Origin: a virus
Reading direction: 5' to 3' (one strand)
Virus record (IMG/VR): IMGVR_UViG_3300005329_000012
Coordinates: 1-64,000 of that record
DNA: 64,000 nucleotides
In this document: positions 124 to 64,000 of the stretch, piece after piece
How the letters are laid out: the number at the start of each line of letters is the position of its first letter
How positions within the stretch are numbered: the first letter of the stretch is position 1
Notes under the pieces: model-generated
What the model saw: only the letters and a program-made list of their open reading frames with translations
Database searches by the model: none
Told to the model about the DNA's origin: nothing
Made by a program: the position numbers and the translations under genes

Positions 124-532
124 TCAGGGACGCCTGCACGGCGCGGATGTCGTCCACCAGGCCGACGAGCAGCATTTCGAGCCCGTCGCGCTCCGAGATG
201 TGCGCGCCGCTCGCGAGGTCCGGCCGCTGGAGCAGCATGCGGAGGGCCTTGAGCTTGAGGGCGACGTTGTGGTACGTCATCTCGAAGTCCACGGTCAGGT
301 GGTAGGAGTCGCCGTCGCGCAGCTCGGGGACGGTGCCGCTGTCGGCGAGGGCGGCGATCCAGTCCCGGTCGCGCTCGACCTGCTCGGCGTCGAACCAGAG
401 GTCGATCTTGACGTTCTCGACGCGGTCGGCCATCGACCCGGGCACCCACACCGGCTCGCTCGTGGCGACCACGCGCTCCAGCGGGGCGGCGACCGCCTTG
501 CGCGCCTTCCGCTTCGCGAGGAAGCCCATCAT
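113..532 (-). CDS. Hypothetical protein
   Basis: 3' part of ORF 113..934; ATG at 532 overlaps stop of upstream gene (ATGA). Confidence 0.75.
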   Translation of the reverse strand: MMGFLAKRKARKAVAAPLERVVATSEPVWVPGSMADRVENVKIDLWFDAEQVERDRDWIAALADSGTVPELRDGDSYHLTVDFEMTYHNVALKLKALRMLLQRPDLASGAHISERDGLEMLLVGLVDDIRAVQASLSGK

Positions 533-1149
533 TCGGCGCTCGGCTCGGGCTTGTACATCGGCTGCGAGAGCAGGCGCTCCATGCCCTCGTACATGCCCGC
601 GATGACGTTCGCGGGCACGGCCCGGTCGCCGAGCCCCACCCGCTCCGACTGGCGCTCGATCGCGCGCGCGAGGCCGCAGTCGACCGACACGACCTGGACC
701 TCGTAGCCGTAGATGTCGGCCAGGACGAGGTACGGGTGGGCCTGCCACTCCTGGATGTTCGTGTTGTCCACGATGATCGCGGGCACGCCGTTGATCATGT
801 GGCGCGCGCAGTCGCGCTGCGTCGCCTTGTGGAAGCGCGCGTTGTCGGCGGCGTCGAAGACGTAGACGCGCGCGTTGTCGGCGGCGTCGAAGACGTAGAC
901 GTCGGTTTCCGTGACGCTGACCGCGTTGCCGCACTCGGGGCAGGACGTGTTCGCGCCGATGTGCCCGTGGATCGAGCAGACCCGCTGCGACTCCAGGCGG
1001 TGGTCGTCGGTGCTGATCGTCACCACGACCGGGAGCAGTTCGTCCGGGCGCGAGCCGTGCGCCCGCTCGTACTCCTCGATCATCCGGGCGATCGTGCTCT
1101 TGCCCGAGCCCGGGACGCCCTGCATCACGTAGAGGACCTTCTCGGTCAT
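529..1149 (-). CDS. AAA_33/polynucleotide-kinase-like P-loop kinase with Zn-ribbon insertion
   Basis: Walker A GVPGSGKS, ISTDD, IIVDNTN, lid R-x3-R; CxxH...CxxC insert. Confidence 0.85.
   Translation of the reverse strand: MTEKVLYVMQGVPGSGKSTIARMIEEYERAHGSRPDELLPVVVTISTDDHRLESQRVCSIHGHIGANTSCPECGNAVSVTETDVYVFDAADNARVYVFDAADNARFHKATQRDCARHMINGVPAIIVDNTNIQEWQAHPYLVLADIYGYEVQVVSVDCGLARAIERQSERVGLGDRAVPANVIAGMYEGMERLLSQPMYKPEPSAE
835..900. repeat. Exact 33-bp tandem duplication (in frame)
   Basis: gcgcgcgttgtcggcggcgtcgaagacgtagac at 835-867 and 868-900; gives VYVFDAADNAR twice. Confidence 0.95.
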
Positions 1150-1364
1150 GCGAGCCTCCTCAGCTGGTCGGACCAGAAGCACGTCCTGACACCGTTCGGC
1201 AGCGCGAGCACGACCATGCTCCCGACGCCGGACGTGAGCCCGTCGACCGTCGCCGTGCGGCCGTCGCCCGAGCGCACGATGCGCACCGCGTCGCCCGCCT
1301 TGAGGCGCCTGCCGCCGCGGTCGCGCGCGAGAGTGGGCCGGAGGAAGCGGGGCCTAGTCGCCAT
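1146..1364 (-). CDS. Small basic hypothetical protein (SH3/KOW-like)
   Basis: LKAGDAVRI...ATV pattern; overlaps both neighbours. Confidence 0.65.
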   Translation of the reverse strand: MATRPRFLRPTLARDRGGRRLKAGDAVRIVRSGDGRTATVDGLTSGVGSMVVLALPNGVRTCFWSDQLRRLA

Positions 1365-1752
1365 CGTTCATGTACTCCTCGTACCGCGGGTCTGTCTCGA
1401 CGGCCGTCCGGCCCTCGGGCGTGAGCCCCCACGCGACCTCCAGCTCCCCGGCGTCGTCCACGACCACGTCGGGCTTCGCCAGCCCGCGGAAGCACATGTC
1501 GATCAGGGTCATGAAGGTCGTCGTCTGCCGGTAGTGGTTGATGAGGGTCTGGACCTCCTCGGTGGTCGGCATCGGCTTCTCGTCGCGCTCGCGCGCCTGG
1601 ATGAACCGGACCATCATGAAGTCCTCGTCGCCCTGCGCCTCGTCGCCGCCGTTGAGCAGCGCCAGCCACCCCCGGAAGCCCTCCGGGTCCTCGGCCAGCC
1701 GGGCCGCCGACTCGGGCGTCAGCTTGTAAGCCTCGGTGTCGAAGTCATCCAC
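1354..1752 (-). CDS. Acidic hypothetical protein
   Basis: ORF track, typical codon usage, operon-like overlap. Confidence 0.75.
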   Translation of the reverse strand: MDDFDTEAYKLTPESAARLAEDPEGFRGWLALLNGGDEAQGDEDFMMVRFIQARERDEKPMPTTEEVQTLINHYRQTTTFMTLIDMCFRGLAKPDVVVDDAGELEVAWGLTPEGRTAVETDPRYEEYMNDGD

Positions 1753-2113
1753 TGGGCGCCGACCTCAGGATCGTCTTGAGGGCCTCGGTCTCGTGCTTCT
1801 CCAGAAGGTGGAAGCGCGGGTCGGCCTTGGAGGACGTGCGGACCTCGCCGGGGTAGTCGCGCTTGACGGCCGACCAGAGCACGACCGTCTCGACGCCCTC
1901 GCTCAGCGCGCGCGCGGCGACCTCGTCGCCGTCCGGGCCGAAGCCCAGGTCGTAGTCGGTCACGACGACGTCCCACGGCCCCTCGTTGGCGACCGAGTAC
2001 ACGGCCTCGTGGCCGTTCGTCGCGGTCCGCCCGACGCGGAAGCCCGCGTCGGCGATCTCGTCCTCGGCGATGGCTGCGAAGGACGGGTAGTCCTCGCAGA
2101 GCAGAATCCTCAT
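1745..2113 (-). CDS. Stand-alone response-regulator receiver (CheY-like) protein
   Basis: RILLCED acidic pair, DVVVTDYDL phosphoacceptor Asp, DG, WSA (S/T site), LEK; leaderless start 6 nt after TATACT. Confidence 0.85.
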   Translation of the reverse strand: MRILLCEDYPSFAAIAEDEIADAGFRVGRTATNGHEAVYSVANEGPWDVVVTDYDLGFGPDGDEVAARALSEGVETVVLWSAVKRDYPGEVRTSSKADPRFHLLEKHETEALKTILRSAPSG

Positions 2114-2125
2114 GCACTCAGTATA
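2111..2125 (-). promoter_or_regulatory. Sigma-70-type -10 box with leaderless ATG
   Basis: Minus strand TATACT-GAGTGC-ATG; near-identical CATAAT-GAGTGC-ATG at 33973-33959. Confidence 0.65.
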
Positions 2126-2159
2126 CGCGTTTCGGAGGGGAACGAACACGTAAGGTGCG

Positions 2160-4118
2160 ATGGCGACCCTTGTCACCCCGCAGAACGAGGTCTACCAGCG
2201 GCTCCTCGCGCTCGGGTGGGACCTCAAGCGGATCGACTTCAAGGGCGGCCAGTACGTCGCCCGCGGCTCAAACGACGACGCCGGGCTGGAGGTCGAGCGC
2301 ACGGGCAAGACGCCCGAGCAGGCGCTCCTCGGCGTGTTCACCTACGCCCAGCGCGCCGCGGAGATCAGGCGGTTCGCCGCTCTGAGGAGGCTCGGCGCCT
2401 GGCAGGCCGACTTCACCTCGCAGAAGTCGGAGATCGCCAAGGCGTACCGCGCGCTCCCCGCGTTCGACGCGGGCGCGATCGACGCCTGGACGGCGCTCGC
2501 GGCCGAGAGCAAGGCGCAGGCCGACGCCGTGCGCAAGCAGATCCAGGTCTCCTACGAGGACGACCCCGAGCCGTACGACAGCGCGCGCGAGATGGCCGAC
2601 GACGTGAAGCTGCGGCAGAAGCTCACCGTCTCCCGCTTCGGGCTCGACCACCCGGTCTGGACGCCCGAGCAGGTGCTCGACTTCAGGACCGTGCACGACG
2701 CGGTCGGCCATGTGCAGAGCGGCGGCGACTTCACCTGGCGCGGCGAGAACATGGCCTTCGCGACCCACGCCCCGCTCGTGTCCCCGCTCGCGCAGGAGGC
2801 GCTGTTCGTGGAGGTCCTCGGCAGGGCCGCCTACAACGACGACTTCCGCGGCGTCGGCCCCGAGAAGGTCGGCCTCATGACCGAGTTCCTCAGGCCCGCG
2901 CAGGCGGCCGAGGGGCACCACGTCGGCGTCCCGCACGGCACCATGGCCGTCCCCTACCAGGACGAGCAGGCCCAGCGCGAGGCGGACGAGAACGCCCGCC
3001 AGCGCGCGGTCTACGACCAGCAGGTGCTCAAGGACCTGCCGAAGGGTCCGTTCGACCTCCCCTCCGTCTCGGACGGTTGGAAGGCGAAGCCGCGCCCGGC
3101 GTTCAAGCCGCGCCGCGGCGTCTACGACTGGGCCGCCGACCCGGGCTGGAGGACCGCCGACACCGCCGTCGACCGCCTGAGGGAGATCCACGGCGACCTC
3201 CCGGCCGACCCCGACTACGGCGACCTCGCGTACCAGCCGGACGAGCGCAAGGTGTACTGGAACGTGGGCGACGGCTACCCGCAGGACGCGATCGACGAGG
3301 GCACGCGCCGCTTCGAGGCCGACCCGGGCGTCGACTCGGTCGAGGTCGCCGACGAGGGGCCGCACGTCCCCGGCGGCTGGGTCAGCGTCGCCATGCCGGT
3401 CGTGCGCCCGCAGTACGTGGACCAGGCCCTCCAGGCCATCCACCCGGACGAGCTGCACCAGGGCGAGTGGAAGGCGGCCGAGGGCACGCACTGCCCGAAC
3501 CCGAAGTGCCCGCACGTGCTCACGCCGGACGAGGAGGCGCAGATCCAGCAGACCGGGTACTTCACCTGCCCGGAGTGCCACGGCGAGTTCAACATGATGG
3601 AGGACGAGGGCTGGACCCGCGCCGGGCTCGGCCTGACGCAGATGGGCTGGATCGGCGAGCAGGCGGTCCTCGACCAGGGGACGATCCCCGGCCTCGGGAC
3701 CTTCCGCGCCGCCCACTCGGGCGGGAAGTGGCCCATCGACGCGATCCTCGACGGCGAGGACGGCGTGGCCTACGGCTGCGAGATCAAGAGCAACCACTCA
3801 CAGGCGCAGGAGCGGTTCAAGGTCGGCAAGAAGGAGGAGCGCGACAGGAAGATCGCCTACTGCCTCGCACACGGGCTCCAGCCCGCGCTGGTGGGCGTCC
3901 GCCTCAACTTCTACACCGACGCGGCCGACGTGTTCTTCCGGCCCGGCCTGACCGACACCTGGATCGGCAACAGCCAGATGCGCCACGTGGCGACGCTCGA
4001 CTTCTCGAAGCTGAACCCGTTCCTCGCCCCGACGCCGCAGGCCCAGGCCGAGGCCGTCGAGGGCGCCGACATCCCCGACCAGTCGCTCCAGACGGAGGAC
4101 GACGACATCCCGTTTTGA
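2160..4118 (+). CDS. Multidomain protein: HDxxGH domain, Zn ribbon, PD-(D/E)xK nuclease, SSB-like acidic tail
   Basis: FRTVHDAVGH...GE...E; CPNPKC...CPEC; GWIGE...PIDA...EIKS; ends EDDDIPF. Confidence 0.75.
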   Translation: MATLVTPQNEVYQRLLALGWDLKRIDFKGGQYVARGSNDDAGLEVERTGKTPEQALLGVFTYAQRAAEIRRFAALRRLGAWQADFTSQKSEIAKAYRALPAFDAGAIDAWTALAAESKAQADAVRKQIQVSYEDDPEPYDSAREMADDVKLRQKLTVSRFGLDHPVWTPEQVLDFRTVHDAVGHVQSGGDFTWRGENMAFATHAPLVSPLAQEALFVEVLGRAAYNDDFRGVGPEKVGLMTEFLRPAQAAEGHHVGVPHGTMAVPYQDEQAQREADENARQRAVYDQQVLKDLPKGPFDLPSVSDGWKAKPRPAFKPRRGVYDWAADPGWRTADTAVDRLREIHGDLPADPDYGDLAYQPDERKVYWNVGDGYPQDAIDEGTRRFEADPGVDSVEVADEGPHVPGGWVSVAMPVVRPQYVDQALQAIHPDELHQGEWKAAEGTHCPNPKCPHVLTPDEEAQIQQTGYFTCPECHGEFNMMEDEGWTRAGLGLTQMGWIGEQAVLDQGTIPGLGTFRAAHSGGKWPIDAILDGEDGVAYGCEIKSNHSQAQERFKVGKKEERDRKIAYCLAHGLQPALVGVRLNFYTDAADVFFRPGLTDTWIGNSQMRHVATLDFSKLNPFLAPTPQAQAEAVEGADIPDQSLQTEDDDIPF

Positions 4119-4123
4119 CCGCT

Positions 4124-4780
4124 ATGATCGAGGACATGTTCGACGGCGGCCACAGGCGCGTCTCGCGCCAGGTCGAGGCCCTCGGCTGGAAGGACCTCGC
4201 GGTCCCGGCCGCCGGGCTCGCGCTCATGGCGCCGTTCGCCAACCCGCCCTCGGCCCAGGCCGCGCCGTCCGCCAAGGCCCCGATCCACCGCGTGGCCCCG
4301 AAGAAGAAGGTCGCCCCCAAGCCGAAGCCCGTCACGGCGCAGCAGGCGTGGGCGCAGATGAGCGCCGCCGCGGCCTACATCGCGGGCCGCCCGGTGGAGC
4401 TGCGCCGGGAGACGCCCGAGTTCATCCGCGACAACGTGGGCTGGGCCAACGCCTACGTCGTGCTCGACGGGACGACCACGGTCCATGTCGGCCCGACCAT
4501 CGCGGGCTACATGGACTACCCCAACTCGGGGACGTTCTCGATGGGCGTCGCGGAGCTGATCCACGAGGCCACGCACCTGAAGCTGTTCTTCGAGGACGGC
4601 GGCCCGCAGGCGGCGCCGAACTCCTACACTCGCGCGGCCGACGAGTCCGTGACCAACCGCGCGGCCATCGCCATGGCGCCCGACATCTTCAAGCGGTTCT
4701 TCCCGTGGGTCAACCCGACCGCGGTCCAGTACGGCATCAACCGCGGCCTGCTCGAACTGACGCCGCCGCAGTACCACTAG
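4124..4780 (+). CDS. Putative zincin metallopeptidase with internal signal-peptide-like segment
   Basis: ELIHEATH plus downstream DE; hydrophobic stretch ending SAQA; 3' part of ORF 1736..4780. Confidence 0.7.
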   Translation: MIEDMFDGGHRRVSRQVEALGWKDLAVPAAGLALMAPFANPPSAQAAPSAKAPIHRVAPKKKVAPKPKPVTAQQAWAQMSAAAAYIAGRPVELRRETPEFIRDNVGWANAYVVLDGTTTVHVGPTIAGYMDYPNSGTFSMGVAELIHEATHLKLFFEDGGPQAAPNSYTRAADESVTNRAAIAMAPDIFKRFFPWVNPTAVQYGINRGLLELTPPQYH

Positions 4781-4828
4781 CGTTCATGACGTTCCGCCCC
4801 CGTCGGTAACGGCCGAAGATTAATCTTA

Positions 4829-5326
4829 ATGGCGGACGAGCCGATCATCCTGGAGGAGACTAGGCTTCCGGGCGGCATGACCCGCTGGGCGCCCGCGGGC
4901 GTCGAGAGGCCGCGGGAGCTAACGCCGCAGGAGAAGATCGCGCTGGAGCGCAGGGACGCGCTCCTCACGCAGAAGGCCGAGAGTCGCGAGCCGACGTGCT
5001 GGCGGCACGACTGCGACAGGCCCGCGACGGTCTGGGTCCGGGAGGTCTCGTTCGACTTCAAGGGCGAGAGGGCCGAGCCCCTGCACCACACGGCCGTGTC
5101 GAGCGCCGACTACTCCGGCCCCGTGCCGGGCTTCTGCCGCTTCCACCTGGGGACCGGCCCCTCCGAGCTGGCGCAGGCCGTGTACTTCTCGCGCCCCGAG
5201 ATGTACTGGGGCGTCCGGCCGAACAGGTGGTTCGTGAGCTTCACCGACGGCACCAAGCAGGGCGGCGCGGCCGTCAGCATCGACCCGAAGCAGGAGTCGC
5301 CGAAGATCGTACAGGAGTCGCTATGA
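4829..5326 (+). CDS. Hypothetical protein, possible Zn finger
   Basis: CWRHDC...FCRFH. Confidence 0.7.
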   Translation: MADEPIILEETRLPGGMTRWAPAGVERPRELTPQEKIALERRDALLTQKAESREPTCWRHDCDRPATVWVREVSFDFKGERAEPLHHTAVSSADYSGPVPGFCRFHLGTGPSELAQAVYFSRPEMYWGVRPNRWFVSFTDGTKQGGAAVSIDPKQESPKIVQESL

Positions 5327-6580: not shown

Positions 6581-7741
6581 ATGACGACGAACTACCCCGG
6601 CGCGCTCGACACCACGGCCGTCCTCAAGAACGACGCGACGGACGGCACCGTCACCCAGGTCACGCACGCGCAGCAGCACAACAACGTCGCCGACGCGATC
6701 ATCGCCGTCGAGACGGAGCTGGGCGCGAACCCCAGCGGCGGCTTCGCCACCGTCGCCGCAGCGATCGCGACGCTGGACCCGAGCAGCGGCGGCTTCGTCG
6801 CCAGGAGCCCCGGCGCCGGGCAGGTGGTCCTCCCGACCGCCGACGTGCTCGCGCTGGCCGTGCGCGCCTTCAACGCGGGCCAGACGTCGCTCCTGTTCGA
6901 GGCGCAGAACGCCGCGGGCTCGACCGTCCTCTACATCGACAAGCTCGGCAACTTCAGCGCCACGAGCCTGGCGGTCGGCGGCACCCCGCTCGCCTCGACC
7001 CACCTTAGCGACTCGGCCGCGCTCGCGCGCCTCGCCTCGCCGACCCTCACGGGCGACCCGAAGGCGCCGACCCCCGCGACCTCGGACAACGACACGTCCA
7101 TCGCCACGACCGCCTACGTCAAGGCGCAGGCGTACGCGACGCTCAACAGCCCCACGTTCACCGGCACCCCGGCCGCGCCGACGGCCGCGGGCGGCACGAA
7201 CACGACGCAGATCGCCACGACGGCGTTCGTCCAGGCCGCGCTCTCTGGCGTCGTGTCGGTGCGGACGTCTTCGTTCCCGGTCGACCTCCGCAACCCGGAC
7301 AACACGGGCAACGCCTGGCCGCGGGTCGAGACCATGACGGCGTGGGAGTCGTACTACTGGGGGCTCACCAACGACGTGGTCGGCTCGGTCTACGGCCTCG
7401 TCCGGGTCCCCGAGAACCTGGCGGGCACCCCGGCCGCCAAGATCGCCATCGAGATCAGCTCCAGCGCCACGACCGGCGTCACCAGCATGGCGGTCGCGAC
7501 GGCGTCCGTCCCGGACGGCTCGTCGCTCAACCCGGCGTCGCTCGCCTTCGAGACCACGCAGAACGTCACCACGCCCGCGACGGCCCACGCTCGCAAGAAG
7601 GTCACGTTCACGCTGACCACGCCCCCGGCCGCCGGGGACCTGATGATCGTGCGCGTCTACCACGCGGGCACGGACGGCTCCGACACGCTGGCCGTCCCCA
7701 CGAGGCTGCACGGCGCCTGGCTCGTCTGTGACGTGACGTAA
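6581..7741 (+). CDS. Tail/head fibre protein with fibre repeats
   Basis: Two copies of SPTxTGxPxAPT...TxIATTAxV. Confidence 0.8.
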   Translation: MTTNYPGALDTTAVLKNDATDGTVTQVTHAQQHNNVADAIIAVETELGANPSGGFATVAAAIATLDPSSGGFVARSPGAGQVVLPTADVLALAVRAFNAGQTSLLFEAQNAAGSTVLYIDKLGNFSATSLAVGGTPLASTHLSDSAALARLASPTLTGDPKAPTPATSDNDTSIATTAYVKAQAYATLNSPTFTGTPAAPTAAGGTNTTQIATTAFVQAALSGVVSVRTSSFPVDLRNPDNTGNAWPRVETMTAWESYYWGLTNDVVGSVYGLVRVPENLAGTPAAKIAIEISSSATTGVTSMAVATASVPDGSSLNPASLAFETTQNVTTPATAHARKKVTFTLTTPPAAGDLMIVRVYHAGTDGSDTLAVPTRLHGAWLVCDVT

Positions 7742-9225: not shown

Positions 9226-12200
9226 ATGGAACTCTGGTGGGGACGGGTGGCGGCGGGCGACATGCCCCAGTTCCGCGACCCCGGCGGCGAGGTCTGGACG
9301 TGGGACCCGACCACGCATACGTACGTCAAGCGGCCCGAGAAGGCCATCCCCGACCGCTCGCACGCCTCGGGCGGCGACAACGAGCTGTTTGACCCGGCGA
9401 CGCAGACCGAGCTGCCGAAGAACCCCCTCATGGAGGGTTACATGGCGCGCACGGCCGACTTCGACTTCGGCGGTGAGGCTCCCGAGCCCGACGTCGTGTA
9501 CATGCTCCCGCCCGGCACCGACTGGGTCGTGTGGGAGGACGTGAACGGCGCGCTCAGGACCATGACCGACGAGGAGGTCGTGGAGATGGCCCGGGAGAAC
9601 CTGCGCCAGTTCGGCGGCTCCGACGTCGACCTGCTGCGCCACGACCCCCAGACGCCCGAGCAGGCGTGGGAGGTCATCAACGAGATCTGGGAGGGCGACC
9701 CGGGCGGCCGGGGCTGGCAGCTCCGCGTGCCGCAGGGCGCCCAGTGGGTCCAGATCGAGTTCCCTGGCGAGGACGACCCGCGCTGGGGCGGCGCCGACCC
9801 CCGCGTCGCGCACTTCGGCTCCGGGCAGCCGCCCGCGGGCCTGGAGGTCCGCCAGCCGGACACGGCCGTCTTCGGCGACGAGCAGATGACGGACGCCCTC
9901 AAGGAGATCGACCGCCACCTGAACCCGGACGACAGGCCCGGCGACACGACGTTCCCCGAGCACTGGGGAGCGGCCTTCGCCGAGCCCGGCCAGGTCCTCT
10001 GCCCGAACTGCCAGACGTCGACCGAGTTGCCCCAGTGCCCCCAGTGCGGCAAGGGGCTCAAGCCCGAGTGGGACAAGCGCGGGGAGACCGACCCGAACGA
10101 GACCGACTTCGCGGGCCAGGTCGTGAGGCACCCAGACGGCATGCCCGACCGCGCGCCCAAGCGCAACCGCATGAAGACGGACGACACGTACCCGAGCATG
10201 CTGTCGTCCTGGAGGCCGCGCCCCGGCGAGAAGGTGCACCTGCTCGGCCAGGAGACCGTGACCGGGACGTACATGGGTCCTGCGAACCTCGGCGGCGGCA
10301 CGATGGCGTCCGTCCTCTGGGACTCGGGCGACCGGAGCCCGGTGGCGTACGCCCAGCTGACGTCCGGCCCCGCCGCGCCGGACAGCATGGGCGTATACCC
10401 GGTCGCCAAGCAGGCGGCCGACGACTGGGGCCTCGACGCCTTCAGCGACCGGACCGAGGTCGGCAAGTGGATCCAGGACGTCACCGGCCAGCTCCACGCG
10501 ACCGCGGACTACGGCGGCGAGAACCACGAGCAGCTCGCGCAGGAGTGGGGCCTGGACTGGAACAGCGACATCGGCGCGCTCGGCTCGGTCTTCGACGACG
10601 GCTCGGCCGACACGCAGTGGGTCAAGCAGGGCTTCCAGTTCGACCCGAAGGCGGTCGAGCCCAACCTCCAGTCGATCTTCCAGCAGCCGCTCGGAGGCAA
10701 GCTCGTGCACCTGAACCCGCCCGCGGGCGAGGCGCAGCAGAAGGAGGACGCCTTCCAGCCGTTCGAGATCAGGGCGGGCCAGTGGATCTTCCCGCCCGGC
10801 GTCCCCGCGGCGACCGGCGTCGCGTGGGTCAAGGAGCGCAGCGACGGCGTCCAGTTCCGGCCCGGCATGGTCCTGGTCGCGGAGCACCTTCAGCCCGACG
10901 ACTTCCACCTGTACTCGCAGCGCCCGGCCGCGATCATCACCGCCACGGGCGGCTCGACCTCGCACGCCGCGCTCATCGCGCGCGAGCAGGGGTGGCCGGT
11001 CGTGATCGGCATCGGCGGCGACGCCTACAGCAAAATCGAGACCGGCAACTACGTAAAGGTTGACAACGCGGGGCAGACGACGAACCCGCGAACAATCACA
11101 GTGATGCCCACGCCAAACCAGCAGAACTCACAGTCGGTCTGGGACTCCATCCTGAGGTACCGCCAGGACCAGGAGCGAAACCAGCCCTCCCTCAGGCCGT
11201 CCCTCCCGGGCGCCTTCGGGGGCCTCGTCCAGGCCGTCGCGGCCCGGGTGGCCGCCGCCCCCTCCCTCGACTCGTGCCCCGACTGCGGCGGCCCGCTGAC
11301 GGAGCGCGGCGACGAGAAGATCTGCCACGACTGCGGCACCAGGCAGCCGATCATCGCGCTCAGGGCGGCCACGGCCGCCGTCAAGGCGCCGATGGTCAAC
11401 AGCGCGACCGGCGAGCCCTTCGAGGGTCTCCTGGTCGTCGCGTCCGTGCACGGCCAGGGCGTCGGCTACCTCGTGGGCGAGCCGTACGGCGAGGGCTACC
11501 GCACCGACTACATCTACGTCGACCCGTCCTTCCGGCGCGGCGGCATCGGCAAGCAGCTCGCCGCCACCGCGCGCGAGAACGGCCTCATCCCCTACGTCAC
11601 CCAGCCCGACCAGGTCTACAGCGACTCCGGCGCGGCCCTCGCGGGCGCGCTCTACGGCCACCACTCGCTCTCGCGCACCGCGCGCAGGGCGGTCGGCGGA
11701 CCGGCGCTCGCCGTACCGGCCGAGGCGCTCCTCGGCGGCGGTGCCGCCGCTGGCGGCGCTGCGGGCGGCGGCGGCCTCATGGCCGGTCTCATGGGCGGCG
11801 GCGAGGGCGTCAGTGGCATCGGCGGCCTGATGCGCGGCGCGATGAACCCCGGCAGCTTCCTCCAGGGCCAGGGCCTCAGGAGCCTCATCCCGGGCCAGGG
11901 AGGCCCGGCAGGCCCGAGCCCGAACGCGAGCGTCCCGCCGGAGGGTCCGACGGGCGCGGGCACGTTCGCGCACTTCCTCTACGCCGACACGTTCGGCGAG
12001 GAGGAGACCGGCAGGGCCACCAAGAACCGCGGGGAGAACAGCGACCCCGACACCGCTTCGAGCACCGGCATCGAGGGCGAGAAGGAGCACGGCGACTCGC
12101 CCGAGCAGCTCAAGGACGTGGACGGCGGCCCCGCGAAGGGCATGTCCGACGCCACGGACCCGTACGGCGACCCCGACCACTGGAGCGACGAGCAGAAGGA

Positions 12201-14052
12201 CGCCGTCCGCGCCTTCGAGGTCAACCTCCCGCTCATCCAGGACTTCGCGGAGAGCGAGGACTCGGGCGCCGACCACCCGATCATCCAGGCGATCGACGCG
12301 ATGCTGGAGGACGCTTTCCCCGGCTACAAGGAGCTGGGAGACGGAGGAGAGGAGCCGGATGGTGAACAGGTGGAGTCGCTTGAGGAGCTTTCAGGAAAGG
12401 ATCTCGACGGCGACGACGAGGCTGGAGAGGGCGAGGAGCACAAGGACGCCGTACAGGAAGGTCCCGATGAGGATGAGGACGAGGAAGACGAGCTGAGCAA
12501 GCTCGGCGGCGCCCCGGTCGTGGACATGGGCGGCTACGGGATCATCGACCCGTACTCGCGCCCCGGCCAGGGCGGCGGGCAGCTCGGCGAGATGGGCCTG
12601 GTGACGGACGCCCAGGGCAACGTCGTCGGGCAGTTCATCCGCCACAACGACAACGGCACGATCAAGATCCTGACCGGCGAGGGCTACAAGGACGTGGACC
12701 CGCGCTCGGTCACGGTCCAGAAGGCCGCGAGCGAGCTGTTCCGGCACGCCGACTTCGCCCCGCCGTTCGGCAACGACGCGCAGCAGACGCCTCCCGTCAC
12801 GGGAGTGCCGACCTGCCCGACGTGCGGCCAGAACCACATGCCGGGCACGCCGTGCCCGACGGGCGGCGTCCAGCAGCCCCAGGCGCAGCCGATGGTCGGC
12901 ATGCAGCCGATGGTGCAGCCGGGCGTCCAGCCCAAGGTCGTGACGCACGCGACCGAGTCGCACATCGCCAAGTGGGCCGACACGGAGGGCAACCCCCTCA
13001 AGGTCGGCGCCGACTACGAGCTTCGCTCCCCCGGCTACGCTGTCCCCGACTACGTCGTCGTGGACCACGTCCTGCCGGACAAGCTGGTCTACACGATCAC
13101 GTCCGGCGACATGAAGTACCGGGACAGCCTCACGGCGAAGGAGGTCCGCACCCAGGGCCTTGAGTTCGCCCCGAAGGTCGAGGGGCCGACCTCGAAGGAC
13201 GGCTTCGAGGCAACCGCGGCGCACGGGGACTTCCCCGACGACGGCGGCTTCGCCCCGGGCCTCGGCCCCGACGCCGACCTGCCGATGGAGCTTCCCGAGG
13301 ACTTCCCGCTCGTCTGCCCGAACTGCGGCGGCGGCGCCAGGGCTGGCGCCACGGCCTGCCCGCACTGCGGCTCGCGCGACATCAAGCCCGGCATCGAGAG
13401 CCCGATCTACGACGAGGCCCCGGTCAGGCCCGGAGCCGACCCGATCCCCCAGGTGGACGACCTGACCGAGCCCCCGACCAGGGTGAGCACGGCGATCATC
13501 CCGGGCCAGGGGCAGGGCGGCGCCTACCCCGACGCGGGCCATCTCGCGGAGTGGGAGGCGGCGACCCGCAACCAGAGCGACGCCGAGCTGAGGCAGATGA
13601 TCTCCTCGGGCAAGCTCAGTCCCGAGGCCGTGGCCTTCGTGCAGCAGAAGCTCCAGGAGCGCGCGCGCATGCAGCCGCAGCGCCCGAGCTACCGCGAGAC
13701 GCTCCAGGACCAGGCGGGCCGCGGCCTGCCGATGGGCCAGTACTACCCGCCCGGCGACCCGCGCAGGACGCAGGGCTCCGCCGAGCCCGAGGCGTTCGAG
13801 GGCCTGGAGGACTACACCGGCTCGTTCAAGGGCGACAGCCCGGACGACCGCTCGTGGCTCATGGAGGGCTCGCCCGGGCAGGGCGTGGACGTGGACCCGG
13901 CCCTGATGGCGAAGCTGGCGGGCAAGGACTTCTCGCCGCGCGAGCAGCGCGAGTTCATCGACGAGAGCGGCGAAGCCCGCAACCTGGGCAAGCTCGACCT
14001 CGACGGCACGCACTACATCGCTGACGAGACCGACAGCGCCTTCAACTGGTAG
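9226..14052 (+). CDS. 1608-aa multidomain polyprotein (Zn ribbons, PEP-utiliser phosphohistidine domain, GNAT)
   Basis: GGSTSHAALIARE.G.PVVIG; YVDPSFRRGGIGKQL; several CxxC pairs; C-terminal FSPREQREFIDE...ARNL..LDL.GTHY. Confidence 0.85.
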   Translation: MELWWGRVAAGDMPQFRDPGGEVWTWDPTTHTYVKRPEKAIPDRSHASGGDNELFDPATQTELPKNPLMEGYMARTADFDFGGEAPEPDVVYMLPPGTDWVVWEDVNGALRTMTDEEVVEMARENLRQFGGSDVDLLRHDPQTPEQAWEVINEIWEGDPGGRGWQLRVPQGAQWVQIEFPGEDDPRWGGADPRVAHFGSGQPPAGLEVRQPDTAVFGDEQMTDALKEIDRHLNPDDRPGDTTFPEHWGAAFAEPGQVLCPNCQTSTELPQCPQCGKGLKPEWDKRGETDPNETDFAGQVVRHPDGMPDRAPKRNRMKTDDTYPSMLSSWRPRPGEKVHLLGQETVTGTYMGPANLGGGTMASVLWDSGDRSPVAYAQLTSGPAAPDSMGVYPVAKQAADDWGLDAFSDRTEVGKWIQDVTGQLHATADYGGENHEQLAQEWGLDWNSDIGALGSVFDDGSADTQWVKQGFQFDPKAVEPNLQSIFQQPLGGKLVHLNPPAGEAQQKEDAFQPFEIRAGQWIFPPGVPAATGVAWVKERSDGVQFRPGMVLVAEHLQPDDFHLYSQRPAAIITATGGSTSHAALIAREQGWPVVIGIGGDAYSKIETGNYVKVDNAGQTTNPRTITVMPTPNQQNSQSVWDSILRYRQDQERNQPSLRPSLPGAFGGLVQAVAARVAAAPSLDSCPDCGGPLTERGDEKICHDCGTRQPIIALRAATAAVKAPMVNSATGEPFEGLLVVASVHGQGVGYLVGEPYGEGYRTDYIYVDPSFRRGGIGKQLAATARENGLIPYVTQPDQVYSDSGAALAGALYGHHSLSRTARRAVGGPALAVPAEALLGGGAAAGGAAGGGGLMAGLMGGGEGVSGIGGLMRGAMNPGSFLQGQGLRSLIPGQGGPAGPSPNASVPPEGPTGAGTFAHFLYADTFGEEETGRATKNRGENSDPDTASSTGIEGEKEHGDSPEQLKDVDGGPAKGMSDATDPYGDPDHWSDEQKDAVRAFEVNLPLIQDFAESEDSGADHPIIQAIDAMLEDAFPGYKELGDGGEEPDGEQVESLEELSGKDLDGDDEAGEGEEHKDAVQEGPDEDEDEEDELSKLGGAPVVDMGGYGIIDPYSRPGQGGGQLGEMGLVTDAQGNVVGQFIRHNDNGTIKILTGEGYKDVDPRSVTVQKAASELFRHADFAPPFGNDAQQTPPVTGVPTCPTCGQNHMPGTPCPTGGVQQPQAQPMVGMQPMVQPGVQPKVVTHATESHIAKWADTEGNPLKVGADYELRSPGYAVPDYVVVDHVLPDKLVYTITSGDMKYRDSLTAKEVRTQGLEFAPKVEGPTSKDGFEATAAHGDFPDDGGFAPGLGPDADLPMELPEDFPLVCPNCGGGARAGATACPHCGSRDIKPGIESPIYDEAPVRPGADPIPQVDDLTEPPTRVSTAIIPGQGQGGAYPDAGHLAEWEAATRNQSDAELRQMISSGKLSPEAVAFVQQKLQERARMQPQRPSYRETLQDQAGRGLPMGQYYPPGDPRRTQGSAEPEAFEGLEDYTGSFKGDSPDDRSWLMEGSPGQGVDVDPALMAKLAGKDFSPREQREFIDESGEARNLGKLDLDGTHYIADETDSAFNW

Positions 14053-17472: not shown

Positions 17473-19920
17473 GTGGCGCACCGCAAGTACGCAAGGTCGG
17501 AGGTACTCGGGGTCAAGTCGTCCGCCGAGCGGGCGGCGGCCCCGAGCCTCTCGGCCTTCTCGTCGTTCGACGACTACAAGACGGACGACGGCTTCCTGTA
17601 CGTGCGCGTGCGCGCGATCAGCTCGCGCGTCAACAAGAACCACGACGGCTGGCCCAGCGAGGAGCTGAGCAAGGCGTACCGGACGTTCGTCGGCAAGCCG
17701 ATCTTCGTCGACCACCACAACACGGACCCGAAGAAGGCCCGCGGCGTGGTCGTGGACGCGGCCCTGCACGTCGAGGACGACCTCGACAAGACGGCGAGCC
17801 TCGACCCGTACTACGCGTCGGCCCCCGAGAACCACCTGCCGCCCACCTGGATCGAGCTTCTGCTCGAAGTGGACGCCAAGCGGTACCCGAAGCTGGCGAA
17901 GGCGATCGTGGCGGGCGACATCGACGGCGTCTCCATGGGCGCCAACGTCGAGCGGAGCATCTGCTCGCACTGCGCGAACGTCGCGCGCTCGCCGGAGGAG
18001 TACTGCACCCACGTCCGGTCCAAGGGCGCGTACTTCGACTACTACGGCCCGGACGGCACCAAGACCTCGAAGAAGGCGTACGAGGACTGCTACGACATCG
18101 GCTTCTTCGAGCTGAGCTTCGTGTTCGACCCGGCCGACGAGACCGCGCTCAAGATCGACCACAAGATGGCCGCCAGGCGGCAGGCCATGGTGGACGTCTA
18201 CGCCGAGACCGACGGCCCGAGGACCGCGATGGCGAAGGTCGCCGCGGCCCTGGAGCCCGTCCCCGAGTGGGAGGGCGAGCCCGCCGAGCTGGGCGAGCCG
18301 TACAACCCCGAGAACCTCGCGGAGGCGCCCGCGGGCGACGACGAGGCCGCCACGGCGAGGGCCTGGAGGGTCGAGCAGTACATCCGCGCGGGCTACACGC
18401 CCGAGGAGGCCGAGGCCCTGGCCGACGCCACCGCCGGGCACCCCGGCCAGACCGGCGAGGGCAACGTCTACCCCGACGTCATGCGCACGATCGAGCAGGG
18501 CGCCACGCCGGACCAGGCCCGGAGGATCTGGGCCAGGACGCACGGCCTGGAGATCGACACCGCGGTCGCGGACGACGAGTTCCTCTGGAGCAAGACCGCC
18601 GAGCAGAACCCGCCGCCCCAGAGCGACATGACGACCGCCCCCGAGGACGTCGACACGCTCAGGCAGGACAAGACGTGCCCGATCTGCGGCTCGGACATGG
18701 AGGACGGCATCTGCGAGGTCTGCAACTACGAGGAGCCCCCGGAGGGCTTCGACAACCCGGACCTGGAGAAGGCGAAGGAGACCGACCTGCGCGAGGAGCA
18801 GCAGGCGGGCGAGGAGGCCCTCCAGCAGACGCAGGCCCAGACGCCCGGCGCCGCGACGCCCGGCGAGGGCTCGCAGATGGGTCCCGAGGGCGCGCCCGGC
18901 ATGACGCAGCCCATCCAGGCCAGCACAGCTTTCCCCGCCGCTGCGGACCCTGTAACTGATGACAAGACCTCCGAGCGCACCGCCGCCCGGACCAACACGC
19001 AGGAGAGGCCCATCCTCCCTGCGACTCGGAAGCTGACGGACAAGCCCAAGAACCCCAAGACGGTCAAGGACTCGAAGCAGCCGGTAGAGAGCAACCGAAA
19101 GGACAAGATGACAGAGACCACCCAGAAGGTTGCCGACGGAGCCACCCCCGTGGGGGAGGGCGTCCAGGCGGACAAGCGCGTGGACGTCGAGGGCGTGGGC
19201 GCCACCAGCCCGGACCCGCTGTCGGGAATCGAGCACCAGAACGTCGAGACCGAGACCGCCGACTTCACCGCGCCGAAGACCGACACGTGGTCCGGCGAGG
19301 AGGGCGACTCGCTCCAGAGCGCCGACGCCGTGACGTCGGACACCGGCGACTTCGCCACCGTCTCCTCCACCGAGAAGACGGCCGACGAGAAGACAGCCGA
19401 CATCGAGGTCATCGAGACCATCCCGTCGGGGAACGGCTTCCCCGACCACGACCCGTCCCACGTGGACCTGGAGGCCCTCCTGGCCGAGGAGGTCGGCGAC
19501 CGGACGGAGACCGACTCCACCGGCACGGCGTTCCGCTCCCTGGAGCAGGCCCCGGCCGTCACGAAGGGCGAGTCGGGCAACGACCTCGGGGGACCCGTGG
19601 GCGTCGCGCTCGCGAAGGCCCAGCTCCTCAAGGCCGTCAAGGTCGCGGAGGCGGAAGTGGACCTCGGGCTCATCGAGGCCGAGGCCAAGTTCGACCGCGT
19701 GGCCGAGCTGGAGGAGACCCCCGCGGAGGCGCTGGACGCCACCCTGGAAGCCCTCGCGAAGGTCAAGACGGCCGGACTCCGCAGGCCGAAGGCCGCCTCG
19801 CAGCGCACCGCCTCGGCGGGGCGCATGCCGAGCTTCCGCGCGCCGGGCGAGGGCTTCCTCGTCGAGGCCGCGGCCACCGACGCCGAGATCGACCGGCAGG
19901 TGGAGGACGCGATCTTCTAG
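17473..19920 (+). CDS. Capsid maturation protease fused to scaffold-like region
   Basis: NKNHDGW, FVDHHN, GVSMG, CSHC..CTH, FFELSFVFDPADETA; acidic C-terminal half; upstream of capsid genes. Confidence 0.85.
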   Translation: MAHRKYARSEVLGVKSSAERAAAPSLSAFSSFDDYKTDDGFLYVRVRAISSRVNKNHDGWPSEELSKAYRTFVGKPIFVDHHNTDPKKARGVVVDAALHVEDDLDKTASLDPYYASAPENHLPPTWIELLLEVDAKRYPKLAKAIVAGDIDGVSMGANVERSICSHCANVARSPEEYCTHVRSKGAYFDYYGPDGTKTSKKAYEDCYDIGFFELSFVFDPADETALKIDHKMAARRQAMVDVYAETDGPRTAMAKVAAALEPVPEWEGEPAELGEPYNPENLAEAPAGDDEAATARAWRVEQYIRAGYTPEEAEALADATAGHPGQTGEGNVYPDVMRTIEQGATPDQARRIWARTHGLEIDTAVADDEFLWSKTAEQNPPPQSDMTTAPEDVDTLRQDKTCPICGSDMEDGICEVCNYEEPPEGFDNPDLEKAKETDLREEQQAGEEALQQTQAQTPGAATPGEGSQMGPEGAPGMTQPIQASTAFPAAADPVTDDKTSERTAARTNTQERPILPATRKLTDKPKNPKTVKDSKQPVESNRKDKMTETTQKVADGATPVGEGVQADKRVDVEGVGATSPDPLSGIEHQNVETETADFTAPKTDTWSGEEGDSLQSADAVTSDTGDFATVSSTEKTADEKTADIEVIETIPSGNGFPDHDPSHVDLEALLAEEVGDRTETDSTGTAFRSLEQAPAVTKGESGNDLGGPVGVALAKAQLLKAVKVAEAEVDLGLIEAEAKFDRVAELEETPAEALDATLEALAKVKTAGLRRPKAASQRTASAGRMPSFRAPGEGFLVEAAATDAEIDRQVEDAIF

Positions 19921-20661: not shown

Positions 20662-21717
20662 ATGACTCTCACAGCACGCACCGCGAAGTCCTCCGAGGAC
20701 TACGTCGAGAAGCTCGCCTCGCTGCCGAAGCTCACCAAGGCCGAGAAGCAGCAGCGCCTCGCGACGATCCTCGCCGACAAGGCCAGCGGCATGCACCGCC
20801 TCGGCCAGGGCATGATCGGCCCCATCCAGATCCGCCTGCGGTACGAGGGCATGGTCCGCAACGTCCTCCTGGAGGACACGCTGGAGCGCGGCCCGCTCAT
20901 GCCGTACGACATCCTCGACGACCTGGGAATGGCCTACATCCTGAACTCCACGGATGCCGAGGTCAAGATCCAGATGTTCGAGGGCAAGCAGGCGTTCCCC
21001 GCCCTGTTCCGCATCGCGTCGTTCCCGAAGATCCGCAAGGAGGATCTGTACTACCTTCGGGTCAACGCCGTCGAGTACGCGCAGGACGAGTCCCGCCAGG
21101 CCATCCAGAAGCAGGAGGACTACAAGCTCATCCAGCTCCTGGAGACCGCGATCGTCGAGCATGGCGCTGCCGGGCAGACCCCGGTCGGCGGCATCGCGAC
21201 GGGCATCTCGGCCGGTCCTTCCACGGACCTCACCGAGAAGACCGTCCTCGTCGGCGCGAACAACCCGCTGGAGCCGGTGGACTTCTACAGCGCGGTCTCG
21301 ATGATCGAGATCGAGCAGCTGGAGGCGTCCAGGGTTCTCGCTCACCCGCAGGACATCCGCGACCTCTACACCTGGGACATCAACGTCACGGGCTGGAGCT
21401 TCAAGGACAAGGTCTTCGCGGGCGAGAAGATCACCAGCTTCGGTGAGTTCCAGGTCCAGAAGTCGGTCATGGTCCCGCAGGGCGAGACCTTCCTGACCGC
21501 GGACCCGGAGTTCGTGGGCGTCTTCCCGGTGATGTACTCCCTCGACGTCGAGGAGAACCACCAGGTCGAGCAGTTCCACAAGGGCTGGGTCATGGACGAG
21601 CTGGTCGGCATGATGATCCTGAACGCCAGGGGCATCGCGCGAGTCCGCAAGGACGACGACAACAGCCCGGACAGCGGCATCGTCACCAACATCGCGGAGC
21701 GCGGCCTCTACACCTAG
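20662..21717 (+). CDS. Major capsid protein
   Basis: LGQGMIGPIQIRLRYEG, FRIASFPKI, AIQKQED, GWVMDE; size, position, strong terminator after. Confidence 0.9.
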   Translation: MTLTARTAKSSEDYVEKLASLPKLTKAEKQQRLATILADKASGMHRLGQGMIGPIQIRLRYEGMVRNVLLEDTLERGPLMPYDILDDLGMAYILNSTDAEVKIQMFEGKQAFPALFRIASFPKIRKEDLYYLRVNAVEYAQDESRQAIQKQEDYKLIQLLETAIVEHGAAGQTPVGGIATGISAGPSTDLTEKTVLVGANNPLEPVDFYSAVSMIEIEQLEASRVLAHPQDIRDLYTWDINVTGWSFKDKVFAGEKITSFGEFQVQKSVMVPQGETFLTADPEFVGVFPVMYSLDVEENHQVEQFHKGWVMDELVGMMILNARGIARVRKDDDNSPDSGIVTNIAERGLYT

Positions 21718-61023: not shown

Positions 61024-62285
61024 CAGAGCTGTACGTGGGGCTGGACATCGACGAGCAGATCGTCGCCCACCTGGCGACGCCGGGCGGCGCGAAGATCGCC
61101 GAGGAACTCGACCCGGAGTTCCTGAGCGACGACGCCGCGGAGGCGCTGACGCGCTGGCGCGAGTACAAGGACCAGTACGGCGGGGTCATCCCGCCCGACA
61201 TCCTCGCCGACGAGATGGACTGGGACGGCGAGTTCCCCGAGGCCCTCGGCGAGCCCGAGTACTGGCTCAACGAGGCCCGCACCCGGCAGCTGCGCCGCGA
61301 GGGCGCCGCGGCCATCAAGCGCGCGGGCGCGATGGGGAAGGAGGACCCGGTCGAGGCGTTCACCTGGCTCGGGAAGGAGTCCGTGCGGCTGGTCGAGCTG
61401 GCCGCGCCGCCCACCCGCGCCGTCCGCAGCCTCGGCACCGAGGGCGGCGCCGAGTGGTACCGCCAGCAGACGACCGAGGCGGCCAAGGGCCTCTCGTGGG
61501 GCTTCAAGGACATCGACGAGGCCGTCGGCGGGCTCCGCAACGGCACGCTGAACGTCATCGTCGCCCGGCTCAAGCGGTACAAGAGCTGGCTGGCGCAGAA
61601 GTCGGCCATGGAGACGTTCTACAACGGCAAGCGGGTCACGTTCGCCCCGCTGGAGCTGCCGGTGGGCGAGTTCAAGACGCGGCTCAACTGCATGATCGGC
61701 GACGTGCCGTGGTCGGTCGTCGGCCGCTACGTCGCCGGACCGGAGCACGTCGAGCGGATGGAGGAGGTCGAGGCTTGGATGCGCGAGCAGGCCAACCCGA
61801 TCAACATCGTCAAGCCCGCGCCGGGCGCCGTCACGGCGGCCACCCTGGCGGCCGAGGCGAAGCGGTACGAGAGCGACATCCTCTACGTGGACCAGCTCGA
61901 CTTCATGGAGCGCGACCGCTCCCTCCCGGAGTGGGTCGAGTACGGCCGCATCGCCACGGAGCTGAAGCAGGTGGCGATGGAGCTGGACATCCCGGTCGTC
62001 CTGGTCGTCCAGTTCAACCGGCAGGCCACCGTCAAGAAGTTCGTCGACCTGGGCGCGGAGTTCGTCGGCCACGCCGACAAGATCCCGCAGGTGCTCGACG
62101 TCCTGATGGCGAGCTTCGCCACCGGCCGGATGAAGGACAACGGCATCATCCACTACGGCATCCTGGAGTCCCGGTCGGCCACCGCTCCCCGCGCGTGGGA
62201 GATCAAGGTCGAGCTGGACGACAGAGCCGACTTCGTCCTCTCGCGCGAGCACGACCTCCACGCGGACGACGAGAGTGACGACTAG
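61020..62285 (+). CDS. dnaB: DnaB-like replicative helicase
   Basis: IDEAVGGL, atypical Walker A ARLKRYKS, LEL, YVDQL, LKQVAMELDIPVVLVVQFNR. Confidence 0.85.
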   Translation: MTELYVGLDIDEQIVAHLATPGGAKIAEELDPEFLSDDAAEALTRWREYKDQYGGVIPPDILADEMDWDGEFPEALGEPEYWLNEARTRQLRREGAAAIKRAGAMGKEDPVEAFTWLGKESVRLVELAAPPTRAVRSLGTEGGAEWYRQQTTEAAKGLSWGFKDIDEAVGGLRNGTLNVIVARLKRYKSWLAQKSAMETFYNGKRVTFAPLELPVGEFKTRLNCMIGDVPWSVVGRYVAGPEHVERMEEVEAWMREQANPINIVKPAPGAVTAATLAAEAKRYESDILYVDQLDFMERDRSLPEWVEYGRIATELKQVAMELDIPVVLVVQFNRQATVKKFVDLGAEFVGHADKIPQVLDVLMASFATGRMKDNGIIHYGILESRSATAPRAWEIKVELDDRADFVLSREHDLHADDESDD

Positions 62286-63572: not shown

Positions 63573-64000
63573 GTGGCACAGTTCCGTAGGGGCGCCGACG
63601 CGATCGCGCAGGCGGCCAAGCGCAAGGGAGGCGGCAAGTTCGCCCCGGTCTTCAAGTTCGAGGCCGACGAGACGAAGTACCTCCAGTTCCTCGTCCCGAT
63701 GGAGGACATCCCGACGGTGCTCATGCACCAGTTCATCATCATCGGCTCCCGCGAGGACGGGTCGCCGAAGTACGAGCGGTTCATCTCGCGCCGCGACCCG
63801 GGCCTCGACGGGCCGGACGGGTACGACGAGATCATCGACCGCTTCGGCCTGACGCCGACGGAGCGCAGCGTCGCCCTCGCGGTCGAGGTCGAGCCCGTCT
63901 ACGGCGAGGGCACCGGCCGACGCAAGAAGATCGAGGGCTTCGACCTGGCCATGCGCCAGTTCGAGAAGGACGGCGAGACCGTGGAGGTCCCGGCGTTCCA
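63573..64000 (+). CDS. Probable ssDNA-binding protein, runs off the right edge
   Basis: GTG with SD aggagg; GGGKFAPVFKF...KYLQFL...HQF; follows primase. Confidence 0.55.
   Translation, partial: MAQFRRGADAIAQAAKRKGGGKFAPVFKFEADETKYLQFLVPMEDIPTVLMHQFIIIGSREDGSPKYERFISRRDPGLDGPDGYDEIIDRFGLTPTERSVALAVEVEPVYGEGTGRRKKIEGFDLAMRQFEKDGETVEVPAF

Follow-up and report, generated by a model that had tools for sequence, protein, structure and literature searches.

A conserved phage nuclease module ending in the C-terminal tip of bacterial single-stranded DNA-binding protein

Our subject is one gene in a 64,000-nucleotide stretch of viral DNA (the window), positions 1 to 64,000 of IMG/VR virus record IMGVR_UViG_3300005329_000012. 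[quoted passage not shown] Our results establish the fold of the module, its catalytic set, its disordered linker and the identity of the tip, as well as the conservation of the tip in homologues where the module is C-terminal. We propose that the module is a structure-specific nuclease that would be docked through a mimic of the SSB tip, and we consider this proposal about evenly balanced between being right and being wrong.

The E. coli SSB tip contains DDDIPF (PMC5872125), as part of the longer ending WMDFDDDIPF (PMC3575820). A phmmer search against 1.84 billion cluster representatives gave 60 relatives of the protein studied here. An alignment (A1) was built from 24 of them, and its profile was used to map the module in the pooled relatives. 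Among the 49 distinct proteins whose final domain is the nuclease, 41 terminate in [ILVMF]-P-[FY], even at less than 30% identity, and the consensus reads D-D-D-I-P-F. Counting back from the final residue of these 41 tails, position 0 is Phe in 39 and Tyr in the other two, position -1 is always Pro, and position -2 is Ile in 31, while Asp occupies position -3 in 24, position -4 in 17 and position -5 in 12. The eight exceptions are mostly near-variants or carry short add-ons, for example ...ETPFD and ...EEDPFQVAASV. At 12 further IMG/VR loci we found a distant second subfamily, where 11 of the 12 proteins end in Phe and ten of these in x-P-F. The endings include DAPF, PVPF, DDLPF, EDLPF, EDMPF and VDLPF; one protein ends ...AINHF, and a short open reading frame (ORF) at locus L036 lacks the tail. 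The preliminary description of this DNA had staked its reading of the tail on whether homologues keep it, and they do. In the 89.5 kb record the gene studied here is the sole ORF with an acidic ...PF ending, and the nuclease is likewise the sole ORF with such a tail in the 100%-complete relative G002. Since the tail is unique in the record and shared by so many of the homologues, we take it to be beyond chance.

The region that carries the tip behaves differently from the tip itself. The distance from a conserved N-P-F, which closes the nuclease core, to the end of the protein ranges from 8 to 39 residues in homologues (median 23), and the sequence in between is poorly conserved and modelled with low confidence. 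Positions -12 to -4 of the tail hold on average 3.3 acidic and 0.4 basic residues. Judged from these alignments, a conserved tip on a drifting, disordered linker is the linker-plus-tip design of SSB. A different kind of docking peptide, the beta-clamp-binding motif, is a pentapeptide of the Q-L-[SD]-L-F type. We rejected it for this tail, where the most frequent residue is Asp at positions -5 to -3 and Pro is invariant at position -1, and where neither Gln nor Leu is ever among the commonest residues at the places required by the motif.

The assignment of the core to the PD-(D/E)xK superfamily, which had first been read from sequence motifs, is confirmed at the level of fold and motif by structural modelling and by conservation. 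In the 24-sequence alignment, which reaches down to 26% identity, the catalytic columns (E75, D102, E116 and K118 in domain numbering) are each either invariant or conserved to at least 90%. The AlphaFold2 model of the module has a mean predicted local distance difference test score (pLDDT) of 83.9 and a predicted template modelling score of 0.78, with pLDDT above 90 in the core and below 50 in the tail. E500 lies in a helix (67-81 in model numbering), D527 just before a strand (103-107), and E541-I-K543 within another strand (112-121). This placement is that of the catalytic sites of the superfamily, in helix 1, at the start of strand 2 and in strand 3. The closest structural neighbours found by VIA-align are the archaeal Holliday junction resolvases Hjc (1gef, Z 9.5, with a root-mean-square deviation (rmsd) of 3.0 A over 105 of 120 residues; 2wcw, Z 8.9) and Hje (1ob8, Z 8.3). 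Below them rank the PD-(D/E)xK homing endonuclease I-Ssp6803I (Z 8.0), restriction enzymes, VRR-NUC, RecU and tRNA-splicing endonucleases, and nearly all of the top 50 neighbours are PD-(D/E)xK nucleases or relatives of tRNA-splicing endonucleases. Foldseek returned the SPARDA nuclease domain, RecU and Hjc, and its searches of both the PDB and viral models agree with the VIA-align result.

In front of the core is a zinc ribbon formed by C445, C450, C470 and C473 (codons at 3492, 3507, 3567 and 3576). Three of these cysteines, C20, C25 and C45 in domain numbering, are invariant in the alignment, and all four, in the pattern C-x4-C ... C-P-x-C, are present in the consensus and in this protein. 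The ribbon gives weak zinc-finger matches in Pfam and the PDB. Sequence searches do not place the module in the Hjc family. The Hjc family profile (PF01870) did not match the module and Pfam at E-values up to 1 gave zinc-finger noise only, while phmmer and profile searches of PDB sequences likewise found zinc fingers only. Pfam, NCBIfam and PADLOC hold no model for the module, and PHROGs matches residues 89-285 of the protein alone. In a megablast and tblastn search of 50,697 GenBank phages the module had no match, and only the N-terminal domain matched, in cluster C phages. The SSB family PF00436 has no match in the 652-residue protein, and there is no OB fold in its model.

The module is found in proteins of 250 to 2245 residues and stands alone in proteins of about 240 to 290 residues. 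In two giant GNAT proteins (P0025 and P0028) it is the closing domain, and these giants are homologous to a 1608-residue ORF of the window (9226-14052, +), which links that ORF to the nuclease gene by domain fusion. The product of the ORF itself has a GNAT domain and a single PEP-utiliser mobile (phosphohistidine) domain, with several zinc ribbons besides. In P0020 (1257 residues), which has an adenylate/guanylate cyclase catalytic domain, the module lies near the C-terminus, about 140 residues before the end. In P0054 and P0060 the module comes first and is followed by an entire CCA-adding enzyme that includes an HD domain, and in the relative G006 the module and the CCA-adding enzyme are encoded by adjoining genes. 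The parts of the CCA-adding enzyme are a PolyA_pol head, an RNA-binding part, HD and tRNA_NucTran2_2. The neighbour gene at locus L027 (10001-14293) also has YunG-like and probably GNAT parts, and an AAA_33 kinase is found nearby. Inteins typically occupy sites in conserved, functionally important enzymes. In P0015 a LAGLIDADG intein of about 350 residues (residues ~131-477) lies between E-I-K-T-N-H and S-Q-A-Q-E-R-F-K. It starts with Ala and ends in H-N, the next residue is Ser, and the insertion point is three residues after the catalytic Lys. The presence of an intein at the active site implies that catalysis matters.

Altogether 19 homologues carry further domains C-terminal to the nuclease module. 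At many of these junctions an acidic-hydrophobic-Phe motif is followed by a small residue, with flanks that vary: D-L-D-A-I-F-G-P, D-I-D-A-I-F-G-P, D-I-D-A-A-F-G-K, D-I-D-A-M-F-G-P, E-L-D-E-I-F-S-K and, once, D-D-I-P-F-G-K. From the sequences, either this would be a linear motif that needs no free carboxylate, or the chain would be cut after the Phe.

The C-terminal 240 or so residues make up an autonomous mobile module that combines the zinc ribbon, a minimal Hjc-like endonuclease, the acidic linker and a free DDDIPF. The enzyme is predicted to be a metal-dependent and probably structure-specific DNA endonuclease that would act on branched or forked DNA. The tip would act like SSB-Ct, with its Pro-Phe-carboxylate and acidic run entering the pockets that read SSB. 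Docking of this kind could hold the nuclease in place at forks, at gaps or where DNA is repaired, or it could compete with SSB for its readers. Candidate readers include host exonucleases, helicases of the RecQ/RecG/PriA type, the clamp-loader chi subunit, primase, or the phage's own replisome. We also considered a more specific form of the proposal, in which the SSB "address label" has been moved to a branched-DNA nuclease that rides the host SSB interactome (e.g. chi, PriA, RecG, RecQ), and in which the multi-domain forms are unmasked after delivery by proteolysis after the Phe of D-I-D-A-I-F-G-P. We rate this version as less likely than not.

There are several observations that weigh against docking through an SSB-tip mimic. 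The main internal tension is with a strict SSB-Ct reading, because the internal motif of the fused forms cannot offer a free carboxylate unless it is cleaved. The AlphaFold2 model gives the tail no docked pose. Should the host be an actinobacterium, its SSB tip would be DDEPPF-like and not DDDIPF, as in the M. smegmatis ending GADDEPPF, a peptide that E. coli RecO binds about 25-fold more weakly than DDDIPF (PMC3575820), yet none of the roughly 50 tails reads P-P-F. The phage also has other resolvase candidates, which weakens the idea that the tailed nuclease is its one resolvase. The fusions to CCA-adding enzymes, together with the N-terminus resembling a double-stranded RNA-binding domain (dsRBD) described below, make a tRNA- or RNA-related role possible. 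Finally, the gene is located among late, structural and polyvalent-like genes, between tail-fibre genes and the head module, and not in the replication module. As the preliminary description had remarked, the distance is large: RNR, a DnaC-like protein and primase (62275-63399) are encoded at 54.9-63.4 kb, about 50 kb from the nuclease gene.

This location is one of the points that favour the main rival explanation, in which the tail would serve to dock the nuclease on another phage protein (coat, portal, scaffold or terminase) or to have it encapsidated, and the nuclease would be a "polyvalent" effector that the capsid carries and that is injected along with the DNA. In the fused forms, cleavage after the Phe of D-I-D-A-I-F-G-P would expose the same type of tail. 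The head maturation protease-scaffold fusions of these phages have acidic-hydrophobic-Phe tails of their own, VEDAIF in the window, EDSIF in G001 (L012, 5303-8134, -) and EALFL in G002 (L018, 251-2539), and these resemble the internal DAIF of the fused nucleases. The shuffling of the module among giant GNAT, cyclase and CCA-adding enzyme proteins is also what is seen in polyvalent proteins. However, the protease tails have no Pro, whereas the nuclease tip is x-P-F with an invariant Pro and an exact match to SSB-Ct. No other large protein of G002 has the tip, and members named from Patescibacteria contigs also have IPF or LPF tips, although a prophage origin is possible for these. On balance we find docking to such a phage partner, or encapsidation, unlikely to be what the tail is for.

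A second alternative is that the acidic tail serves as an intramolecular DNA mimic that folds onto the basic DNA-binding face of the nuclease and keeps the enzyme off until it is displaced. The tails of E. coli SSB, T7 gp2.5 and T4 gp32 fold back on their own DNA-binding domains, and the linker here is acidic, disordered and variable in length with a conserved hydrophobic end, as such a role would require. However, AlphaFold2 places the tail nowhere with confidence, and autoinhibition alone leaves the residue-for-residue copy of D-D-D-I-P-F unexplained. As the sole function of the tail we think it improbable, and less probable than encapsidation. It is compatible with docking through the SSB-tip mimic and does not exclude it.

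The tip might also be a decoy that fills the pockets with which host nucleases, helicases or SSB-sensing defence systems read SSB, with the nuclease activity being secondary. The identity of the tip to SSB-Ct is the only feature of the protein that speaks for this, together with the triggering of some defence systems, such as Retron-Eco8, by phage SSBs. We consider a decoy very unlikely, the least probable of the explanations discussed here. Conservation of the catalytic residues matches that of the tip and the intein targets the active site, PADLOC and anti-defence families gave no match, and a monomer or dimer would need to outcompete the abundant tetrameric SSB.

The preliminary description had also noted a probable SSB gene belonging to the phage, and our searches bear this out. 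The gene, which runs past the end of the window and lies directly before a DnaE-type polymerase gene (64522-68055), encodes a gp32-like candidate that matches phrog_1607 ("single strand DNA binding protein") with E 3.3e-7 and has an Atlas feature score of 0.91 to an ssDNA-binding cluster. The candidate ends ...RDSVKA, without the tip, and its orthologues in G001 and G002 end ...AEDDE and ...ELNAY. The nuclease tip is thus no copy of one on the SSB of the phage itself. The nuclease is the sole tip-bearing product in G001 and G002, which were scanned whole, and in the partial record of this phage. No PF00436 SSB was found in the record or in seven relatives that are at least 90% complete (G001, G002, G006, G007, G009, G010 and G011), in a search whose first-pass filter may miss divergent SSBs. 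The other resolvase candidates begin with a phrog_2002 protein that adjoins a Cas4/RecB-like exonuclease, both near the DnaE-type polymerase, as is the SSB candidate. There are also an Endonuclease_7 match in G000 (the full record) and G001, and RuvC-like candidates in G002, G006 and G007. hhalign found no profile similarity between the tailed nuclease family and the phrog_2002 resolvase.

The gene itself is one ORF of 652 codons in the ORF list and its translation. Its GC content at third codon positions (GC3) is 0.98, in sequence of 70% GC, and this GC3 value is why we consider it a real gene. The stretch 3480-4118, which had been taken for a gene of its own, is instead the C-terminal module of this larger protein. 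Conservation in relatives also begins about 30 codons before 3480, near 3390 (AMPVVRPQYVD). All the elements that had been pointed out (Zn ribbon, GE, PID, EIK, linker and DDDIPF) are in frame within the ORF. Neither a sigma-70-like promoter nor an intrinsic terminator turned up in a search of 1900-4900. The window covers the first 64 kb of the 89.5 kb record, which is rated about 56% complete. Soil and rhizosphere metagenomes hold DNA that is near-identical to the record, and there was no RNA run among the matching sequencing runs listed.

The N-terminal 262 residues are found in relative G001 as part of a separate 858-residue protein, with 54% identity over 259 residues. Residues 9-71 model as alpha-beta-beta-beta-alpha and align by VIA-align to the dsRBDs of Dicer, Staufen and RNase III with Z 8.7-6.0 and an rmsd of 2-3 A over about 60 residues; Foldseek support is weak. 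We treat the likeness of this modelled region to a dsRBD as a lead and not as proof. The PHROGs match of the protein, to phrog_3170, has an E-value of 6.7e-18. By tblastn the helical domain (residues 86-250) matches hypothetical proteins of about 200 cluster C mycobacteriophages, for example Catera gp103, and in an alignment it has the invariants DPEPY, HP-W and FR-VHD--GH-SGGDF-W-GEN. VIA-align and Foldseek gave no fold match for the helical domain, and a word-based homologue search with the N-terminal domain gave no match.

The major capsid protein (MCP) of this phage shares 52-57% identity with the capsids of cluster C mycobacteriophages. Seven IMG/VR genomes of 144-170 kb, in which the nuclease family is also present, have capsids with 57-87% identity to it. 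The GC content of the loci around the nuclease gene in relatives is 45-63%. The family is present in every near-complete genome found here of this widespread soil and rhizosphere clade, and on this sequence evidence it is a marker of an uncultured clade of ~150-170 kb phages with kinship to the mycobacteriophages of cluster C. The kinship of the capsids suggests a host in Actinomycetota. A search of bacterial-genome contigs with a second alignment (A2) gave one match, a contig of 3.3 kb that had been binned with a Burkholderiales metagenome-assembled genome (MAG) whose SSB ends DDMDDDIPF. We did not count this as a host link, given a GC content of 46% versus 53%. The same type of search with P0043 gave no match. 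Contigs of 495 and 94 kb from Saccharimonadales/Patescibacteria MAGs are given as the source of two family members (P0043 and P0048), and these are the members with the IPF and LPF tips mentioned above.

The immediate neighbours of the gene are less easily placed. Directly 3' of it, 4124-4780 (+) encodes 218 residues, of which the N-terminal segment is hydrophobic and which include a stretch rich in Lys and Pro and an H-E-x-x-H motif (HEATH). From its sequence the product is possibly a zinc protease that is secreted or sits in the membrane, and it has no Pfam or PHROG match. The products of a divergent operon that adjoins the nuclease gene, 529-1182 (-) and 1745-2113 (-), are an AAA_33/zeta-toxin-like P-loop kinase and a response-regulator receiver domain that stands alone. 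A phage tmRNA is encoded at 75956-76330 of the record. The first residues of its 29-residue tag are A-N-D-N-D and the last are A-L-V-A-A, and the tmRNA carries no clear host signal. The coordinates of the main features are collected in Table 1.

Table 1. Features of the nuclease gene and of related genes in the window and in the full record (G000)
Feature	Position	Strand	Basis
Whole gene: N-terminal module, spacer, zinc-ribbon nuclease module with SSB-type tail	2160..4118	+	ORF list, translation, GC3
dsRNA-binding-domain-like fold, residues 9-71	2184..2372	+	AlphaFold2 model and structural matches
Conserved helical domain, residues 86-250	2415..2909	+	phrog_3170, tblastn, alignment
Nuclease module start with four-Cys zinc ribbon	3390..3632	+	alignment of homologues
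PD-(D/E)xK nuclease core, residues 492-621	3633..4022	+	AlphaFold2 model, fold searches, conserved motifs
Catalytic E500 of G-E (G-x-I-G-E)	3657-3659	+	sequence
Catalytic D527 of P-I-D	3738-3740	+	sequence
Catalytic E541 of E-I-K	3780-3782	+	sequence
Catalytic K543 of E-I-K	3786-3788	+	sequence
Conserved N-P-F closing the core	4014-4022	+	N and P invariant in alignment
Flexible Pro/Gln/Ala/acidic linker, residues 622-646 (~25 residues)	4023..4097	+	pLDDT 46-58
Tip DDDIPF (4098-4115) and stop TGA (4116-4118)	4098..4118	+	read from sequence
Tail fibre	6581-7741		
Head maturation protease-scaffold fusion	17473-19920	+	
MCP	20662-21717		
Start of gp32-like SSB candidate (63573-64472, past window end)	63573..64000	+	phrog_1607
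phrog_2002 "Holliday junction resolvase", 127 residues, PD-(D/E)xK	69455-69838 (G000, locus L037)		PHROG profile
Cas4/RecB-like exonuclease, adjoining the phrog_2002 gene	69831-70601 (G000, L037)		

SSB-Ct, which is a drug target, is a hub through which more than 12 bacterial enzymes of replication, recombination and repair are recruited. If docking through an SSB-tip mimic is correct, mobile elements would exploit this hub not only by binding to it but also by imitating it. In the version where the nuclease rides the host SSB interactome, this could amount to a novel way of taking over the host or countering its defences, and the proteins described here would be the first natural family of SSB-tip-tagged nucleases. 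The approximately 50 natural variants of the tip offer a ready set for probing the specificity of the pockets. The family also fills an annotation gap, as the module is without a model in Pfam, NCBIfam, PHROG and PADLOC.

Each part of the module has counterparts in known systems. The core resembles Hjc and Hje (1GEF, 2WCW and 1OB8) in its minimal alpha-beta-beta-beta-alpha-beta fold with E ... D ... E-x-K, over about 105 residues at an rmsd of about 3 A, but the identity is only 12-15%, and the family adds the N-terminal zinc ribbon, an extra C-terminal strand with NPF, and the tail. The tail is like the bacterial SSB-Ct in having the identical DDDIPF, a free C-terminus, an acidic run, and a conserved tip on a disordered and variable linker. 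It differs in that the tip is here on a zinc-ribbon nuclease and not on an OB-fold ssDNA binder, and in the internal motif, such as D-I-D-A-I-F-G-P, of the 19 fused homologues. Polyvalent proteins, which have been proposed to travel in the capsid and for which cluster C phage GNATs were cited (Iyer et al. 2017, PMC5512222), are similar in combining one module with unrelated enzymatic domains, as seen here in P0020, P0025, P0028, P0054, P0060, P0015 and P0001, near late genes. However, the terms REase, restriction endonuclease fold, SSB and C-terminal tail do not occur in that paper, and for the nuclease clade, delivery through the capsid would be a proposal from gene position near head and tail genes.

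The closest analogies for a docking tail on a phage enzyme come from T7 and from prophages. The tails of T7 gp2.5 and of the T7 helicase-primase gp4 end in Phe, and the gp2.5 tail uses the same basic patches of the polymerase as the gp4 tail. The acidic C-terminal tail of gp4 docks on these patches (PMC12593628). This is an acidic docking tail on a replication enzyme that is not an SSB, with the same design logic as we propose for the nuclease, but the gp4 and gp2.5 tails are phage-specific and read by the phage polymerase, whereas the nuclease tip copies the bacterial SSB consensus. Prophage DUF669 (gp2.5-like) SSBs do end in DDDIPF and have been proposed to plug into the partners of host SSB (PMC13687109). 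They are, like the nuclease, mobile-element proteins with the bacterial SSB tip, but they are ssDNA binders themselves, whereas the nuclease has no recognisable ssDNA-binding fold. Full-text literature searches found no description of a nuclease that bears the SSB tip. The parts of the module are thus known, and it is their combination, a PD-(D/E)xK fold with an SSB-Ct tip in one conserved family, that appears to be new.

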